A stretch of 64,000 bases of DNA. It comes from Candidatus Dormiibacterota bacterium. Its GTDB lineage: Bacteria; Chloroflexota; Dormibacteria; DASZGP01. Under the pieces are notes generated by a model. That model worked only from the letters and a program-made list of their open reading frames with translations, had not been told where the DNA came from and made no database searches. The translations under genes were made by a program, and so were the position numbers. The stretch is from the NCBI GenBank assembly GCA_049644325.1, contig JBARRR010000039.1:19867-83866 (forward strand), in the 5' to 3' direction. This document shows positions 39,610-55,455 of this stretch, piece after piece (positions within the stretch are counted from its first letter, which is position 1; each line of letters opens with the position of its first letter).

Positions 39610-39692
39610 GTCGGCGTGGTGGAACGGTAGACACGCCAGCTTTAGGAGCTGGTCCCCGCGAGGGGGTGGAGGTTCGAGTCCTCTCGCCGACA
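39610..39692 (+). tRNA. tRNA-Leu (anticodon UAG), class II with a long variable arm.
   Basis: The acceptor stem is 7 bp, GTCGGCG/CGCCGAC. The anticodon stem is CCAGC/GCTGG with loop TTTAGGA. The variable arm is a hairpin, TCCCCGCGAGGGGGT. The T-loop is TTCGAGT with stem GGAGG/CCTCT. The discriminator is A and CCA is not encoded. Confidence 0.85.
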
Positions 39693-49893: not shown

Positions 49894-50850
49894 GTGACCT
49901 ACGGCACGATCAAGTGCCCCAACTGCGGGGCGCCCATCCCGGTCAACAGCGAGGCGTGTCAGTACTGCGGCGAGGCCCTGCCCAAGGCCGCGCCCCCACC
50001 GCCGCAGGCGACGCCTTCGGTCATGCTCAACTTCAACCAGGAGGCCTTCGACCAGGTGGCGGTCGCAAGCGCTCGCAGCTTCCTGTGGGCCTTCATCGCC
50101 ATCCCCATCGTGCTGGTGGTGATCGGGATCATCGTCGCCGTTACGGTGTTCTCGAGCCTGGGACGCAGCACCTCCAGCGGCCTGTCTCTCGGCACCTCCA
50201 GCAACGTCTCCCAGCTGCAGTCCAAGAAGTGCGAGAACTGCAGCCTGCCCAACACCACCGCCAACAACACCGACCTCTCCGGGGGCAAGTTCAGGGGCAT
50301 CAGCCTGGTCAACGGCAGCTTCCGGGGCAGCAACTTCAAGAACGCAGACCTGTCCCGGGCCGACCTCAGCAACGCCAAGATGTCCAATGCCGACCTGTCG
50401 GGGGCCGACCTCACCGGGGCGAAGCTCAGCAACGTAGACCTCAGCGGCGCCAACCTCTCTGGCGCCAAGCTGGACTCGGTCACCGCCGCCAACACCGACT
50501 TCAGCCAGGCCAACCTGAAGGAGGTGAGCATCACGGGGACGCCGGCGCTGGTCAACGCCGTCCTCAACGGGGCCGACCTGACCGGCGCCACGCTGCAGAA
50601 CGCGGACCTGACCAATGGCAAGCTCGACCACGCCAAGCTCCGCAGCGCCAGCCTGACCGACGTCAAGCTGATCAACGGCATTCTCACCGGGGCCGACCTC
50701 ACCAGCGCCAAGCTGACCCGCATCAATTTCATCAACGCCAACCTGACCGGGGCCACGACCGCCGGGGTGACGTCCACCGGGACCAGCACGTGGACCAACG
50801 CCCACTGCGTCGACGGCGGCGTGGTGCCGTTCGGCGGCAAGTGCTTCTGA
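49894..50850 (+). CDS. Pentapeptide-repeat protein with an N-terminal C4 zinc ribbon and one TM.
   Basis: The zinc ribbon is CPNCG...CQYCG and the TM is LWAFIAIPIVLVVIGIIVAV. About 30 A(D/N)LSG-type pentapeptide units follow. Confidence 0.8.
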   Translation: MTYGTIKCPNCGAPIPVNSEACQYCGEALPKAAPPPPQATPSVMLNFNQEAFDQVAVASARSFLWAFIAIPIVLVVIGIIVAVTVFSSLGRSTSSGLSLGTSSNVSQLQSKKCENCSLPNTTANNTDLSGGKFRGISLVNGSFRGSNFKNADLSRADLSNAKMSNADLSGADLTGAKLSNVDLSGANLSGAKLDSVTAANTDFSQANLKEVSITGTPALVNAVLNGADLTGATLQNADLTNGKLDHAKLRSASLTDVKLINGILTGADLTSAKLTRINFINANLTGATTAGVTSTGTSTWTNAHCVDGGVVPFGGKCF

Positions 50851-50887
50851 ACTCGGTTTAGGCGCACTCCTGGCGGGTTAAGATCTG

Positions 50888-51273
50888 GTGTTGCGTGACG
50901 AGTCGGCAAGGTGACCGCGGCGGGAGCGATCCCGTCGAGGAAAGTCCGAGCTCCGTAGAGCAGAGTGCCGGGTAACACCCGGCGGGCGTGAGCCCAGGGA
51001 AAGTGCCACAGAAAATACACAGCCTCGGCGTAAGCCGGGGTGAAGGTGAAATGGTGGAGGTAAGAGCCCACCGGCGACCGGGAGACCGGCCGGCCTGGTA
51101 AACCCCACTCGGAGCAAGACCTAAAGGAGGACGCCAAGGCTGCTCGCCAAGTCCTCGGGTTGGTCGCTGGAGGCGCCGGGTAACCGGCGCCGTAGATAGA
51201 TGGTCACCACCCCAAGGCCTTTACCGCCTAGGGGTACAGAACTCGGCTTACCGCCGGTCTCGCCACGCAACAC
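50888..51273 (+). ncRNA. rnpB: RNase P RNA, bacterial type A.
   Basis: Conserved blocks are present: GGAAAGTCCGAGCTCC, CACAGAAAATACA, GGTGAAATGGTGGAGGTAAGAGCCCACC, GGTAAACCCCACTCGGAGCAAGACC and ACAGAACTCGGCTTA. The P1 helix pairs 5-prime GTGTTGCGTGACGAG with 3-prime CTCGCCACGCAACAC. Confidence 0.9.
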
Positions 51274-51442
51274 TCCCCACCAGCCCCACCGCAAACCGGC
51301 CATTTGGTGGCCGAATCCTCAATCTGGGCCTGGGGCCTCACCCAGCGCTACATCTAGGGCTGACCGGCAGCCAGGACACACCATCTAGCGATCACGCCGG
51401 CTTCGACGGGGGCCCTAACCCAACATCTTGATGCCAATTGTG

Positions 51443-51506
51443 TTGACAGGGTGCGTTCCCAGTGCTACGTTTCGCGGCGAAGTGGTAGCAGGTGGTGAAA
51501 AGTGGG
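51443..51506 (+). promoter_or_regulatory. dcw-cluster promoter (TTGACA-17-TACGTT) followed by three GTGGN direct repeats at 10-bp spacing; these are MraZ boxes.
   Basis: TTGACA is at 51443-48 and TACGTT at 51466-71. The repeats GTGGT, GTGGT and GTGGG lie at 51482, 51492 and 51502. A second TTGACA is at 51578. Confidence 0.6.
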
Positions 51507-51620
51507 GAACGATCAGTCTTCTCTTCGTCCCCCCTCGATTGGATTCCCACTTTTCGCCCCTGCGTCCCTTCGGCACATTGACAGGGGGGCCAGCGGTCCC
51601 ATCAGACGCCCGATGAGCCG

Positions 51621-52067
51621 ATGTTCGTCGGCCAATATCGACACTCGATCGACGCCAAGGGACGGCTGGCCATCCCGGCCAAGCACCGGGAGCAGCTGCC
51701 CACGGGGTCGATCATGACCATCGCCCCAGAGAACTGCCTCCGGGTGTACCCACCACAGGAGTGGGAGCGGGTCAGCGGGGAGATGCGGCTGGGCGCCGCC
51801 AGCGACCCGATGGAGACCAACCTGGCGCGGCGGATGTTCAGCCAGGCGCACGAGATCGAGTTCGACAAGCAGGGTCGGGTCCTGATCCCGGCCTGGCTCC
51901 GGGAGGCGGCGGGCCTGGGCGCCAGTGCCCAGGTAATCGGCGTCGCCAACGTCGTCGAGATCTGGAGCGACGCGAACTGGACGGCCTTCGTCGAGCAGAC
52001 CGGCGACTTCACCGGGCTGGCCAACGCCGTTGCCGAAAAGCGGCAGGGCAGCCCCGGAAATCCCTAG
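51621..52067 (+). CDS. mraZ: Transcriptional regulator MraZ.
   Basis: It starts MFVGQYRHSIDAKGRLAIPAKHR and has a duplicated SpoVT/AbrB fold. Confidence 0.9.
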   Translation: MFVGQYRHSIDAKGRLAIPAKHREQLPTGSIMTIAPENCLRVYPPQEWERVSGEMRLGAASDPMETNLARRMFSQAHEIEFDKQGRVLIPAWLREAAGLGASAQVIGVANVVEIWSDANWTAFVEQTGDFTGLANAVAEKRQGSPGNP

Positions 52068-53100
52068 ACCGACCGGGCCAGGGGGCTCGACGCGCCACCA
52101 ACCTGTTCTTTTACACGAATCAATAGAGATCCTCCAGCCCCGGCCGGGCGCCGTCTTCTTCGACGGCACCTTTGGCGGGGGAGGGCACTCCCGGGAGATC
52201 CTCAAGCGGATCAGCCCGGGGGGAATCCTCCTGGCCATGGACCGCGACCCCGAGGCCGCAGCCCGGGCCGAGCAGCTGAAGGCGGAGCACGGTGACGCGT
52301 TCCGCTTTGTCCAAGGGAACTTTGCGGATGCCAGCGACCCACTCGAGGCGCTGGGTACGGGGCAGGCGCCGCTCGACGGCGCCTTCCTCGACCTCGGGCT
52401 CTCATCGTTCCAGCTGGACGACCCCGAACGGGGCTTCAGCTTCATGGCCGACGGCCCCCTGGACATGCGCATGGACCCCGACCAGGGCCCCAGCGCCGCC
52501 GAGGTCGTCAACCGCTACCGCGAGGCGCGGCTGAAGGCCGTGATCCGGGAGCTCGGCGACGAGCCCTGGGCCGGCCCCATCGCCGCCGCGATCGTCCGCC
52601 GCCGCCGGCGCCAGCCCTTCCAAACCACGCGGGACCTCGCCGAGCTCATCGGCGGCGTCATCCCCCGGGCCCGGTGGCCAAGGCGCATCGACCCCGCAAC
52701 CAAGACCTTCCAGGCGATCCGCATGGAGGTCAACGACGAGCTTGGTTCACTGCGCGGGGGGCTGGAGGTAATCGTCAAGCACCTGAAACCAGGTGGCCGG
52801 CTTGGGGTCGTCTCATTCCACTCTCTCGAGGACAAGGTAGTAAAGGACTTTCTCAACGTCGAAGCAAAGGACTGCATCTGTCCGCCCCAACAGCCGGTTT
52901 GCACGTGCAACCACCTGGCGAGTCTCATCATCCATCCCCCCCATCCCCTAAGGCCGGGCGAGAGCGAGATCGAGGGTAATCCTCGGTCTCGTTCTGCCCG
53001 GCTGAGGGGCGCCATCCGGCTTCCCTACAGCGGGGCCATGCCGGCAACCAGGAAAGGTCGTAGCAGAAAACGAAGAAATGATCGCTCTCAGACTGAATAA
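52030..53100 (+). CDS. rsmH: 16S rRNA (cytosine1402-N4)-methyltransferase RsmH.
   Basis: It has HQPVLLHESIEIL and FDGTFGGGGHSREIL. The only canonical start upstream of the conserved N-terminus is the TTG at 52030, which overlaps mraZ by 38 nt. Confidence 0.8.
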   Translation: MPKSGRAAPEIPRPTGPGGSTRHQPVLLHESIEILQPRPGAVFFDGTFGGGGHSREILKRISPGGILLAMDRDPEAAARAEQLKAEHGDAFRFVQGNFADASDPLEALGTGQAPLDGAFLDLGLSSFQLDDPERGFSFMADGPLDMRMDPDQGPSAAEVVNRYREARLKAVIRELGDEPWAGPIAAAIVRRRRRQPFQTTRDLAELIGGVIPRARWPRRIDPATKTFQAIRMEVNDELGSLRGGLEVIVKHLKPGGRLGVVSFHSLEDKVVKDFLNVEAKDCICPPQQPVCTCNHLASLIIHPPHPLRPGESEIEGNPRSRSARLRGAIRLPYSGAMPATRKGRSRKRRNDRSQTE

Positions 53101-53563
53101 CGCTCCCGCCCGCCGGGCGCTGAGCCCTGACTCCAGGGTTAAGCGCTCGCGTGGCCTGGTGCGTATGCGCCGCCCGCGGTCCGCGGCCAGCTTGACTGCG
53201 GTCCTGCTCGGGATCCTGCTGCTTGGCGCCTTCGGCCTGCTCTACGTTGCCGCCACCGCGTCGGCCACCCAGGCCAGCTACCAGATCAACATGCTCAAGG
53301 GTGACCAGCAGAAGCTGATCGCCCAGCAGCAGTCGACCCGCTACCAGATCTCGATGGCGACCTCCGCCGGCCGCCTCGACGGCGACGCCTCGAGGATGGG
53401 AATGGTCCCCCAGAACCAGATCCAGTACCTGCCCGGCAGCCACAACCCGGTGGCGCTGGCGGGACCGCAGCAGGCCACCCCGACCGAGCCCAAGGGCTCC
53501 TTGCTGCAGCAGCTGGCCACCATCCTGGGGCGGCCCACCGAGGCACAGGCGAAGGGGCAGTGA
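53078..53563 (+). CDS. ftsL: FtsL-like cell-division protein.
   Basis: It has a single TM (LTAVLLGILLLGAFGLLYVAA) followed by a coiled coil (QINMLKGDQQKLIAQQQ). It is in the conserved position. Confidence 0.6.
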   Translation: MIALRLNNAPARRALSPDSRVKRSRGLVRMRRPRSAASLTAVLLGILLLGAFGLLYVAATASATQASYQINMLKGDQQKLIAQQQSTRYQISMATSAGRLDGDASRMGMVPQNQIQYLPGSHNPVALAGPQQATPTEPKGSLLQQLATILGRPTEAQAKGQ

Positions 53564-53640: not shown

Positions 53641-55455
53641 TTGAGCGAATCGTCGCGCGGGCGCCTGCGCGTCCTCTGGTTGATGGCCGGGGCCGCCCTG
53701 CTGGCCGCGATCCTGGTTTTCCGCCTGCTCTACTGGCAGGTTGCGGAGCACCAGCGCATCTCGGCATTGGCCGCCGACCAGCACCAGGTCACGTTCAAGC
53801 TGCCGGCCCACCGTGGCCGCATCCTCGACCGCAACGGCCAGCTGCTGGCGACCGACACCCCCGTCTTCAACGTCGTCGCCGCCCCCAACCTGATCCCCCC
53901 CGACCAGCGCCCCGCCATCGCCGGGCGGCTCTCGGTGCCCCTGGGGATGGAGCCACAGGAGGTCCTCAAGCAGATCTCCCAGCCGCTCAAATTCACCTAC
54001 ATCAAGCGCAAGGTGCCCAAGGCCGTCGGTGACCGCATCGATGCGATGCACCTCACCGGCATCGCCCTGGAGGCGGACTCCCAGCGTTCCTACCTGACCA
54101 GCGTCGACGCCCCGCCGACCACCCCCGGGCCGGTAGTGCTGCAGCCCTCGCCACTGCCGCTGGCGTCGCCTTCGCCGAGTCCTTCGCCAGGGGCGCCCGC
54201 GCCGCCGCCGATCCTGCCCCACTCGCTGGCCAGCAACCTGCTTGGCTTCGTCAACAATGACGGCGCCGGCCAGTACGGGCTGGAGCAGTACTACAACAAG
54301 CAGCTGAGCGGCACCGACGGCTTCGAGGCCAGCCTCAAGACCGGCGCCAACCAGACCATCACGCTCAGCGACGAACAGCGCAAGGATCCCCAGAACGGCC
54401 TCGACCTGCAGCTGGGCATCGACAGCCAGGTCCAGTTCTTCGCCGAGAAGGCCCTAGCGGATGGGGTGCGTAAGACCGGCGCCGAGTCGGGCTCGGTGAT
54501 CGTGATGGAGCCATCTACCGGCAACATCGTCGCCTGGGCCGACTATCCCAGCTTCGACGCCAACAACTTCGGCGGCACCGACGCCAAGCTCTTCACCGAC
54601 CCGATGGTCAGCGGCCTCTACGAGCCCGGCTCGGTGATGAAGCTGGTGACCATGTCCGGAGCCCTCGACAGCGGCTCGGTGACCCCGACCACCACCTTCA
54701 ACGAGACCGGCTCCGTCAACGTCGGCGGCTTCAGCATCCGCAACTGGGACGGCAAGGCCCACGGCAACATCACCATGACCCGCGTCATCGAGCAATCACT
54801 CAACGTGGGTGCCGTCAAAGCCCAACAGATGCAGGGCACCGACAACTTCCTCAACTACCTCACCCGCTTTGGCATCGGCAAGGGCACCGGTGTCGACCTC
54901 TCCGGCGAGGTCAACCAGCAGCTGCCGGCCAAGGCCGACTGGCACGCCTCCGAGCTGGCCACCGCCAGCTTCGGGCAGGGCGTGGTGGTGACGCCGATCG
55001 AGATGGTCGACGCCGTCAACACCATCGCCAGTGGCGGCCGCCTGGTGAAGCCGCGGGTGGTCACCGCCACGATCGACGGCAGCGGCCGGCGCACCGACCT
55101 CGCCCCCGACCCGGGCACCCAGGCCGTCAGCCCGCAGACCGCCGGCCAGATGCGCGACATGATGACCAGCGTGGTCGAGCACGGCTCAGGCTGGACCGCG
55201 AAGATGCCAGGTTGGACGGGGCGGGTGGCGGGCAAGACCGGCACGGCCAACATCCCCGAGAACGGCAAGTACACCGACAAAGTGGTGGCCAGCTTCGTCG
55301 GCTTCATGCCCGCGGAGAACCCGCGCTTCACGATGATCGTGATCATGCGCAAGCCCCAGGGCGGCGGGTTCCAGCAGGAGGGCACCTTCGCCGCGGCCCC
55401 GGTCTGGAAGACGATCGCCCAGCAGATCCTCGCGCAATGGCACATCACGCCGTAG
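53641..55455 (+). CDS. ftsI: Class B penicillin-binding protein (FtsI/PBP2-like transpeptidase).
   Basis: It has an N-terminal TM, SVMK (SxxK), SLN and KTG motifs. Confidence 0.85.
   Translation: MSESSRGRLRVLWLMAGAALLAAILVFRLLYWQVAEHQRISALAADQHQVTFKLPAHRGRILDRNGQLLATDTPVFNVVAAPNLIPPDQRPAIAGRLSVPLGMEPQEVLKQISQPLKFTYIKRKVPKAVGDRIDAMHLTGIALEADSQRSYLTSVDAPPTTPGPVVLQPSPLPLASPSPSPSPGAPAPPPILPHSLASNLLGFVNNDGAGQYGLEQYYNKQLSGTDGFEASLKTGANQTITLSDEQRKDPQNGLDLQLGIDSQVQFFAEKALADGVRKTGAESGSVIVMEPSTGNIVAWADYPSFDANNFGGTDAKLFTDPMVSGLYEPGSVMKLVTMSGALDSGSVTPTTTFNETGSVNVGGFSIRNWDGKAHGNITMTRVIEQSLNVGAVKAQQMQGTDNFLNYLTRFGIGKGTGVDLSGEVNQQLPAKADWHASELATASFGQGVVVTPIEMVDAVNTIASGGRLVKPRVVTATIDGSGRRTDLAPDPGTQAVSPQTAGQMRDMMTSVVEHGSGWTAKMPGWTGRVAGKTGTANIPENGKYTDKVVASFVGFMPAENPRFTMIVIMRKPQGGGFQQEGTFAAAPVWKTIAQQILAQWHITP

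Follow-up and report, generated by a model that had tools for sequence, protein, structure and literature searches.

How is the dcw operon controlled in the Dormiibacterota, and what part does the spacer between the RNase P RNA gene (rnpB) and mraZ play in that control? MraZ, the first product of the operon, is among the most conserved bacterial regulators and its physiological role is still poorly understood; to our knowledge, the Dormiibacterota have no representative in which dcw regulation has been studied. The stretch of DNA analysed here (64 kb, hereafter the window) comes from an uncultured soil bacterium of this phylum. A preliminary description had placed MraZ-box repeats and two TTGACA promoters in the rnpB-mraZ spacer. 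Based on the comparisons below, we consider it probable that the dcw operon is controlled from this spacer, in which a single predicted sigma-70-type promoter with an extended -10 would drive the operon, a MraZ operator lies at the predicted start and the transcribed operator folds into a leader hairpin, the parts being judged jointly.

The locus and its relatives

The 148-aa product of mraZ is identical to P0001, named by NCBI as the MraZ repressor of a Dormiibacterota metagenome-assembled genome (MAG). Both DXXXR motifs are present, residues D11, K13 and R15 together with D82 and R86 are invariant among 59 homologues, and the base-contacting residues K13, R15 and R86 are kept locally. The gene order that follows (mraZ, rsmH, an ftsL-like ORF, a PBP and a Mur ligase) is repeated in the relatives L089-L111. 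No Shine-Dalgarno sequence is present ahead of mraZ; a conserved motif takes in the start codon and reads GATGATCAGATG in most relatives. An ORF in the leader (51502-51717) was dismissed, being neither in the mraZ frame nor conserved. Footprinting was based on 25 Dormiibacterota loci, which yielded 15 distinct upstream sequences with MraZ proteins 54-100% identical. The mraZ loci of other phyla, obtained by a metagenome scan with a MraZ alignment (34-46% identity), served as the outgroup and were excluded from footprinting.

Table 1 Features of the rnpB-mraZ spacer and the genes on either side, in window coordinates
Feature	Position	Strand	Remarks
Candidate -10 (TAAGAT) of rnpB's own promoter	50879-50884	+	~15 nt before mature 5′ end; proposed from sequence only
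rnpB, bacterial RNase P RNA class A	50899-51266	+	Rfam RF00010, 272.2 bits (gathering score 100); model 1-367, full length
Upstream motif, distal copy CATCTAGG	51351-51358	+	-92 from -35 hexamer
Upstream motif, middle copy CATCTAGC	51382-51389	+	-61 from -35 hexamer
Upstream motif, proximal copy CATCTTGA	51424-51431	+	-19/-18 from -35; copy at that offset in every lineage
-35 hexamer TTGACA, dcw (mra) promoter	51443-51448	+	Invariant in 15 distinct sequences; adjacent spacer free to vary
Extended -10, TGC + TACGTT (TGn-TAnnnT)	51463-51471	+	TG, TA and final T invariant in 15 sequences; hexamer TACGTT at 51466-51471
Predicted transcription start	51477-51479	+	7±1 nt after -10, from promoter geometry
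Operator block CGAAGTGGTAGCAGGTGGTGAAAAGTGGGGAA	51478-51509	+	32 nt, near-invariant; boxes 51482-85, 51492-95, 51502-05
Predicted leader RNA hairpin	51478-51572	+	95 nt; inverted repeat, fold, covariance model
Hairpin 5′ arm (operator)	51479-51508	+	
Apical helix	51510-51514 paired with 51537-51541	+	
CU-rich loop	51515-51536	+	22 nt
Hairpin 3′ arm	51544-51571	+	C-rich, conserved
Second TTGACA	51578-51583	+	Maybe part of a clade-specific hairpin ending just before the ATG
Pre-start motif GATGAGCCGATG	51612-51623	+	Conserved; takes in mraZ start codon
mraZ	51621-52067	+	Pfam PF02381 (MraZ), 1.2e-33
rsmH (mraW)	52030-53100	+	Pfam Methyltransf_5, 4e-99; start codon uncertain
ftsL-like ORF	53078-53563	+	
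Class B PBP, ftsI-like	53641-55455	+	
Mur ligase, after ftsI-like PBP	ends 56864	+	

A conserved promoter and a MraZ operator

The arrangement TTGACA-N14-TGn-TAnnnT was found in all 15 distinct sequences with a spacer of exactly 17 nt, amid 14 spacer and 7-8 discriminator bases that differ from sequence to sequence, so that the TTGACA-17-TACGTT pair of the preliminary description (51443-51471) carries an exact phylogenetic footprint. A consensus promoter scanner reported no promoter at the locus because its thresholds exclude a -10 element agreeing with TATAAT at three of six positions, and bare TTGACA is not enriched in the window (10 observed versus 10.0 expected). The evidence for the promoter is therefore its conservation and not the window alone. 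Promoter geometry suggests that transcription would begin at about 51478, giving a structured leader with a predicted length of ~143 nt; in every sequence, 7-8 nt separate the -10 from GAAGTGG.

Immediately beyond, 11 nt after the conserved -10 and 139-116 nt before the ATG, the coding strand carries three GTGG boxes starting at 51482, 51492 and 51502, with the 10-bp period that had been described for them and 6-nt spacers. The pattern GTGG-N6-GTGG-N6-GTGG occurs once on the two strands of the window (0.06 expected from shuffles) and was not found in control sequence (~296 kb) taken from other mraZ loci. The comparison of the repeat consensus among relatives, proposed earlier as a check, gave a 24-nt core identical in all 25 Dormiibacterota loci (15 distinct upstream sequences) at MraZ identities down to 54%, and the 32-nt block varies only at its first base and at three 3′ flanking positions. 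Of 83 loci from other phyla, 28 have the same triple box in the 250 nt that precede mraZ.

MraZ boxes have been described as GTG(G/T) with 6-nt spacers, typically in threes, and MraZ residues K13, R15 and R86 contact bases; in Mycoplasma genitalium the transcription start lies inside box 1 (PMC12957436). Three copies of GTGG[A/T]G are needed for repression in B. subtilis (preprint). The box match, the conservation and, by sequence comparison, the K13/R15/R86 set support the reading of the three repeats as a canonical MraZ operator, in agreement with the earlier proposal that they form the arrangement bound by MraZ homologues. This operator would span approximately +5 to +28, directly at the predicted start. 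By analogy with the systems above, a MraZ oligomer most likely binds the boxes cooperatively and represses the operon that encodes it, by blocking either RNA polymerase or promoter escape. Two inverted arrangements were set aside as candidate sites: CCAC-N6-CCAC, which has a constant position (-152) only in the L096/97/98/107/111 subclade, and CCCCAC-N3-CCCCAC in the window (51275-51289, period 9), for which no site is claimed.

A predicted hairpin built on the operator

Once transcribed, the 30 nt of the operator would pair with a C-rich arm located 40-70 nt further on, the two making up a long imperfect hairpin that has the operator as its G-rich 5′ side and begins 0-2 nt from the predicted 5′ end of the mRNA. 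The hairpin contains a 13-nt inverted repeat, the predicted fold has an energy of -63 kcal/mol (z = -3.2), and the duplex between operator and 3′ arm was estimated at -33 to -47 kcal/mol in 10 of 10 lineages (z -3.3 to -6.7). The same duplex test in other phyla gave z mostly close to 0, L002 and L050 being possible exceptions, and a post-box hairpin as a general feature of mraZ loci was rejected on this basis. A covariance model (R1) was built, and the sequences were realigned to it, because the MAFFT alignment split the apical helix. R1 matches all 14 lineages, at 52-113 bits on the + strand versus 24-35 bits on the - strand, and had no matches at E≤1 in 87 outgroup mraZ loci.

In the resulting alignment, which is fitted to the model and comprises 14 sequences, paired cells amount to 92.9% compared to 46-60% with partners slid, double-change cells number 16 versus 5.3±2.9 in shuffles (0 of 500 reach 16), and three of the five apical pairs have compensatory changes, for example CG:7 with UA:7. 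RNAalifold returned no compensatory pairs on the plain MAFFT alignment. When apical strands were swapped among eight lineages, the observed stability was reached in 11 of 5000 permutations. The loop is held to 21-23 nt across lineages, and because many of the pairs are G-U, the fold is sense-strand-specific. Within the main stem, 17 of 26 pairs never vary, and a frozen 5′ arm leaves none of the 26 free to covary; two lineages (L093/L099 and L095) have a 3′ arm with a mismatch or deletion. Rfam 15, searched at E≤10 over 51267-52120, returned only eukaryotic snoRNA and miRNA matches (E 0.3-8, far below gathering scores), and over the spacer and mraZ it had no match to any mraZ/mraW-associated motif. 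A pseudoknot between the loop and the start region (CGUCC with GGACG) was rejected, since it is possible in only some lineages and is absent in L094 and L097. The folding and covariance models support the hairpin as a predicted structure.

Main-stem conservation would be equally expected were the 3′ arm a DNA site, and an unlikely alternative is that this arm acts as a fourth, inverted MraZ site (AAAAGTGGG, minus strand) for looping or wrapping by a MraZ oligomer, with the RNA hairpin as a by-product. The reverse complement of the arm does hold a perfect box and A-tract (GAAAAGTGGG), one subclade has the further inverted pair at -152 from box 1, and in M. genitalium a MraZ octamer can bind a single box, MraZ also tolerating altered spacing (PMC12957436). 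However, two of the three mirrored boxes lack GTGG, the mirror image has a period of 9 instead of 10, and the inverted box lies 45 or 70 bp from box 3, which is no whole number of helical turns. The box is also lost in L093/L099 (CCCTC) and L095 (CCCCC), where pairing is largely kept, and a DNA site leaves the apical covariation, the fixed loop length and the strand-specific G-U pairs unexplained.

As for what the hairpin may do, our guess is that it serves as a 5′-terminal stabiliser or a post-transcriptional control element of the dcw mRNA.

rnpB as a neighbour of the operon

The RNase P RNA gene, placed at 50888 to ~51273 by the preliminary description, is present, with ends that differ by 7-11 nt from those of the RF00010 match, and rnpB of the relatives scores 223-294 bits with the same model. 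At the place of the candidate rnpB -10, L001 has TAGAAT. The reported rnpB-mraZ synteny is real and extends across the phylum, rnpB adjoining mraZ in 13 of 14 lineages. Co-transcription is not implied by this synteny because L096 and L098 have rnpB inverted and L107 lacks it; the promoter, operator and hairpin are unchanged in all three. On the favoured reading, rnpB is a conserved neighbour outside the dcw transcription unit.

Outside the Dormiibacterota, the adjacency was seen in Propionivibrio dicarboxylicus (L002) and a further MAG (L008), and rnpB also stands upstream of mraZ in 'Candidatus Pelagibacter ubique' (table in PMC2704228). The linkage is patchy, given that among 59 mraZ loci from other phyla that have 1 kb or more of upstream sequence, none carries rnpB there. 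The adjacency thus recurs in distant phyla, and no discussion of it was found in the literature searched.

A coupling of the two units is conceivable and, in our judgement, improbable: read-through from a strong rnpB promoter would link rnpB with dcw, processing or attenuation would take place in the spacer, with the hairpin as attenuator or RNase III site, in a manner resembling UpsM. The adjacency in 13 lineages and its recurrence in Proteobacteria fit this scheme, as does the lack of an intrinsic terminator on the + strand between rnpB and mraZ (none was found over 50500-52500). The predicted helix of ~28 bp is also of sufficient length for RNase III. Structured dcw leaders are known in the Rhodobacteraceae (PMC5089854). 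Against read-through stand the lineages with an inverted or absent rnpB and intact dcw control elements, the hairpin's lack of a U-tract (in none of the lineages is the 3′ arm followed by a U-run) and the absence of any Rfam match to a leader family.

The second TTGACA

The preliminary description proposed a second promoter, based on a TTGACA 40 nt before the mraZ ATG, and with it a very short or leaderless mRNA. The hexamer exists, at a distance of 37 nt from the ATG at 51621 (43 nt start to start), but its reading as a promoter is not supported: no TAnnnT -10 lies 16-18 nt after it (the hexamers there are CATCAG, ATCAGA and TCAGAC), and it is limited to the window and its closest relatives (L001, L089/L090), being absent in the 11 other distinct sequences. 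A two-promoter model, in which this element drives a mraZ mRNA that escapes the operator, is accordingly given very little credence. The hexamer is a perfect TTGACA within an exactly repeated 9-mer (TTGACAGGG), the segment TTCGGCACATTGACAG is common to the window, L001 and L089 with divergent sequence beyond, and mraZ is without a Shine-Dalgarno sequence, all of which speak for the model. It is contradicted by the missing -10, by L091-L111, which have no such hexamer and whose leaders of 109-145 nt are unrelated in sequence at this place, by the chance frequency of TTGACA in the window, and by the minimum-free-energy fold, in which the segment is base-paired with the bases just before the ATG.

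Least probable of all is that the G-rich repeat is mainly a DNA or RNA G-quadruplex (G4) instead of a protein operator: a G4 downstream of S. aureus PmraZ is said to be conserved in other bacteria (PMC11796246) and the block does have four G-runs (GG, GG, GG, GGGG), but three of these comprise only two G, which would allow no more than a weak G4 of two tetrads. The exact 10-bp periodicity and the unvarying T and A-tract positions fit MraZ boxes and not G4s, and in the RNA the C-rich arm is predicted to sequester the G-runs.

Upstream motifs and implications

Ahead of the -35 lie three phased copies of a motif with the approximate consensus NATNTNG(G). Its density is 2.2 per 135 nt upstream versus 0.09 in controls, and the distal copy is position-locked in 12 of 14 lineages. 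If this holds, the position-locked triple motif predicts a second regulator of cell division.

The operator and promoter are already known in kind, and that they reach the Dormiibacterota unchanged is the ordinary part of the result; the leader hairpin and the upstream triple motif are new here. The wider reading, on which our opinion is evenly divided, is that of a dual-use sequence, which would act as an operator in DNA and, in RNA, as one arm of a previously undescribed, phylum-specific leader element with a post-transcriptional layer (stability, processing, or recruitment of a factor or the ribosome), supplemented by three phased upstream sites for a further factor. If true, locking of the operator transcript in RNA structure would explain the frozen spacer bases, the locus would be a compact case of one sequence under both DNA-level and RNA-level selection, and the Dormiibacterota dcw promoter would be much more elaborate than the textbook MraZ-only model.

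Comparison with known systems

Stem-loops at the 5′ end, such as that of the ompA 5′ UTR, stabilise bacterial mRNAs. The Dormiibacterota hairpin resembles these in placing a stable helix within 0-2 nt of the (here predicted) 5′ end; it differs in being much longer, in having a conserved loop and in overlapping a repressor operator, and a stabilising effect would be purely conjectural. Another parallel is UpsM, the dcw leader of the Rhodobacteraceae, which is likewise a lineage-specific, long and structured 5′ UTR before mraZ (PMC5089854). In UpsM, a leader of 268 nt, a strong Rho-independent terminator leads to release of an sRNA (PMC5089854), whereas the Dormiibacterota leader has one 95-nt hairpin built on the operator, without a U-tract, a terminator, or sequence or Rfam similarity to UpsM. 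With the S. aureus G4 (PMC11796246) the locus shares a G-rich repeat region downstream of PmraZ; its G-runs are mostly 2 nt long and its RNA is predicted to be base-paired, unlike the S. aureus case.

In the proteobacterial cases (Pelagibacter, L002 and L008), mraZ is directly preceded by a co-oriented RNase P RNA gene; these belong to other phyla, and among the Dormiibacterota the orientation varies.

The locus also resembles the MraZ-binding repeats of E. coli, B. subtilis and M. genitalium. There too, the coding strand carries three direct GTGG boxes with a period of 10 bp, shortly before mraZ and either at the promoter or directly behind it, and the cognate MraZ has two DXXXR motifs and K13/R15/R86. 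The predicted Dormiibacterota operator differs from these in that its core and spacers are identical phylum-wide and are mirrored by a conserved downstream arm, and in the length of its predicted leader (~143 nt), E. coli having a dcw leader of 38 nt and most species one of ≤70 nt (PMC5089854).

Comparative data set

A Candidatus Dormiibacterota MAG has an annotated protein identical to the MraZ encoded in the window, and a 98%-identical locus is present on DASZHA010000113.1 (L001; comparison loci carry L numbers). Exact-protein look-ups yielded a Dormiibacterota set of 25 mraZ loci, representing 15 distinct upstream sequences with MraZ proteins 54-100% identical. The outgroup consisted of 87 mraZ loci of other phyla. 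NCBI assigns the MraZ of one locus (L094; GCA_035569605.1, DATMMS010000005.1) to 'Candidatus Solibacter sp.', yet the locus has the full Dormiibacterota-type order of DUF3467, TrmK, RNase H, rnpB, operator, hairpin and mraZ; this bin is probably mislabelled or chimeric.

Features of the rnpB-mraZ region in window coordinates
Feature	Position	Strand	Remarks
Class A RNase P RNA (rnpB)	50899-51266	+	Rfam, full-length, 272 bits (gathering score 100)
Second motif, three copies	51351-51358, 51382-51389, 51424-51431		Possibly also 51321-51328
Predicted -35, TTGACA	51443-51448		
Predicted -10, TACGTT	51466-51471		17 bases after TTGACA
Conserved 32-nt block	51478-51509		
Operator part of predicted main stem	51479-51508		
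GTGG boxes 1, 2 and 3	51482, 51492, 51502		
3' arm of predicted main stem	51544-51571		
Second TTGACA	51578-51583		
mraZ	ATG at 51621		Pfam MraZ, 1.2e-33

Promoter and MraZ operator

All 15 distinct Dormiibacterota sequences have the same order of elements, namely TTGACA, 14 variable bases, TGn, TAnnnT, 7-8 variable bases and GAAGTGG, with exactly 17 nt between TTGACA and TAnnnT in each. This constitutes a clean footprint of a predicted sigma-70-type promoter with an extended -10 element, the geometry of which places the predicted transcription start at ~51477-51479. Within the window the triple GTGG-N6 pattern occurs once, both strands counted, against 0.06 expected, whereas bare TTGACA is found at chance frequency (10 observed, 10.0 expected) and a generic promoter scanner reported no site in this region; taken alone, the window therefore supports the repeats and not the promoters. 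The preliminary description had read TTGACA-17-TACGTT as a promoter and the three GTGG repeats as an MraZ-type arrangement. All parts of both are in the sequence, and the comparison upholds them.

The 24-nt core GTGGTAGCAGGTGGTGAAAAGTGG, spacers included, is identical in every Dormiibacterota locus compared, and in the 32-nt block CGAAGTGGTAGCAGGTGGTGAAAAGTGGGGAA variation is limited to the first base and three flanking positions 3' of box 3. This layout agrees with published MraZ sites: repression in B. subtilis needs three GTGG[A/T]G motifs set 4 nt apart (bioRxiv 10.1101/2022.02.09.479790), in M. genitalium the transcription start falls within box 1, and base recognition by MraZ is through Lys13, Arg15 and Arg86 (PMC12957436). 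Across 59 homologues of the local MraZ, K13, R15, R86 and the two DXXXR motifs never vary. Of 83 outgroup loci, 28 have a strict triple box in the 250 nt preceding mraZ, with no match in 296 kb of control sequence. Core identity, published layout, invariant residues and outgroup boxes thus provide good support for a predicted MraZ operator at approximately +5 to +28.

One subclade (L096, L097, L098, L107, L111) has an inverted MraZ-like pair, CCAC-N6-CCAC, at a constant -152 from box 1 (0.007 expected per region). The window carries CCCCAC-N3-CCCCAC right after rnpB (51275-51289), but with a 9-nt period. Such upstream inverted boxes may form an auxiliary operator.

A second motif, approximately CC..A(C/G)AT.T(T/G)G.G, occurs in almost all Dormiibacterota lineages, with ~25-fold enrichment relative to controls. 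Relative to the -35 hexamer its copies are fixed at -92, -61 and -18, with the same offsets in L001 and L090-L111, and their spacings of 31 and 43 bp place them on the same helix face; they are probably sites for a factor regulating the dcw promoter. Separately, an A/T-rich stretch (e.g. TTTTATAATC, TTTTGATAATTG) lies amid GC-rich spacers at ~-125 to -110 from the -35 in L091, L092, L096-L098, L107 and L111, and is missing from the clade to which the window belongs. It may act as an upstream promoter or as a bending element.

A further TTGACA, close to mraZ, had been proposed to drive a short or leaderless mRNA. The hexamer is there, but the positions 16-18 nt past it read CATCAG, ATCAGA and TCAGAC, so it has no TAnnnT; it is confined to the window, L001 and L089/L090, and the other 11 of the 15 distinct sequences have unrelated sequence in its place. 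We rejected both this promoter and a leaderless mRNA as highly improbable. In the predicted fold the same segment pairs with bases just before the mraZ ATG. The mraZ start itself is marked by a conserved GATGATCAGATG (GATGAGCCGATG in the window, 51612-51623), seen just before the ATG in L091-L111, and no Shine-Dalgarno sequence was found there in the window or in L091-L111.

Predicted leader hairpin

A repeat search identified an inverted repeat of GGTGAAAAGTGGG with CCCACTTTTCGCC, which when extended pairs nearly the whole operator transcript with a 3' arm. This structure formed no part of the preliminary description. The main stem comprises GAAG/CUUC, GG/CC, GCAGG/CCUGC and GGUGAAAAGUGGGGA/UUCCCACUUUUCGCC, with a bulged U in two GUGG boxes, and the leader fold is predicted at -63 kcal/mol (z = -3.2). 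The 3' arm, CCCACTTTTC(G)CCCCTGCG...CTTC, is kept in every lineage, and the operator/3'-arm duplex reaches -33 to -47 kcal/mol (z -3.3 to -6.7) in each of 10 lineages, compared with z near 0 in most outgroup loci, L002 and L050 excepted. L002 has a 10-bp hairpin immediately 3' of box 3 (duplex z = -4.0). Above the main stem, an apical helix of 4-5 bp differs in sequence by lineage (CGAUC/GAUUG, CGCCC/GGG..CG, UCUCC/GGA.GA, GGACC/GGUCC, CGGUC/GACCG, GGCC/GGCC) and closes a 21-23 nt loop with a conserved CU-rich A(G/A)UCUUCU.AACGUCC... sequence.

When apical-helix strands were swapped among eight lineages, the observed stability was reached in 11 of 5000 permutations. R1, a covariance model of the hairpin built from six sequences, matched all 14 distinct loci searched at 52-113 bits on the plus strand versus only 24-35 bits on the minus strand, and none of the 87 outgroup loci gave a match at E<=1. 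In the R1 alignment, which was fitted to the model, 92.9% of cells are paired versus 46-60% with slid partners, and three of five apical pairs show compensatory changes (e.g. CG:7 with UA:7); double changes in this small, model-fitted sample occupy 16 cells versus 5.3±2.9 in shuffles (0/500 reach 16). The frequent G-U pairs are compatible with sense RNA only. Plain MAFFT/RNAalifold detected no covariation in the hairpin. Covariation is impossible in the main stem because its 5' arm, the operator, is frozen. No Rfam family matches the leader region.

The main rival explanation regards the 3' arm as a fourth, inverted MraZ box working as DNA. The minus strand of the arm does contain a perfect AAAAGTGGG, but this box is lost in L093, L099 and L095, the mirrored boxes have a period of 9 nt, the spacings between boxes (45 or 70 bp) lack helical phasing, and the covarying apical helix is left unaccounted for. 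The data support a conserved RNA hairpin, specific to one strand, in which the operator sequence is used a second time.

Genomic context of rnpB

Downstream of mraZ are rsmH, an ftsL-like ORF, a class B PBP and a Mur ligase in that order; the run from mraZ onwards is the head of the dcw cluster. The synteny of rnpB with mraZ noted at the outset is present in the window; among the 14 distinct Dormiibacterota lineages reaching far enough upstream it holds in 13, where rnpB is flanked by an RNase H-like gene and mraZ. Two loci have rnpB inverted in an unchanged slot (L096 1739-2090, L098 1774-2123, minus strand), and the MraZ protein lineage P0056 (L107-L110) has no rnpB within 757 nt upstream of mraZ; promoter, operator and hairpin are unaltered in both cases. 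Same-strand rnpB directly upstream of mraZ is also found in Propionivibrio dicarboxylicus (L002, 2010-2384) and a proteobacterial MAG (L008, 2257-2658), a 'Ca. Pelagibacter ubique' table shows the same adjacency (PMC2704228), and no rnpB was present in any of the 59 outgroup loci that extend 1 kb or more upstream. Since rnpB is inverted or missing in some lineages and scattered among phyla, the linkage is a recurrent but patchy neighbourhood and not a transcription unit. Our literature search found no paper discussing it.

Four independent P0056 assemblies all end 700-757 nt upstream of mraZ, which suggests a repeat or variable region there. The interval separating rnpB from the RNase H-like gene is a variable insertion site: in the window it encodes a 318-aa protein (49894-50850) with pentapeptide repeats, a membrane segment and, at the N-terminus, a zinc ribbon; in relatives it is empty or contains an ORF of 74 aa or an unrelated one of 221 aa. 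In the rsmH start region (52030-52100), a TTG at 52030, within the mraZ 3' end, is followed by no ATG or GTG before the conserved N-terminal HQPVLL motif, and the rsmH start is therefore the overlapping TTG or non-canonical. A tRNA gene in the window (39610-39692) and, in the Ferrimonas locus L005, an upstream c-di-GMP-I-GGC riboswitch (649-734) have no relation to the mraZ finding.

Discussion

The data support one conserved promoter with a canonical operator at the start site. By homology with other systems, MraZ would repress its own operon by occupying the initial transcribed region. The hairpin would start 0-2 nt from the predicted mRNA 5' end, a placement shared with 5'-terminal stabilisers, and might act as one. 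Its ~28 bp helix could conceivably serve as an RNase III substrate, and the CU-rich loop could, speculatively, bring in a factor or the ribosome where the mRNA has no Shine-Dalgarno sequence. A double constraint on DNA and RNA would explain why the operator spacers never change.

The promoter and operator core are textbook; judged from sequence, the RNA element and upstream motif are plausibly new features in an uncultured phylum. The structured Dormiibacterota leader is unlike the short leaders of most bacteria, and differs from the UpsM leader of Rhodobacteraceae, which contains a terminator (PMC5089854).
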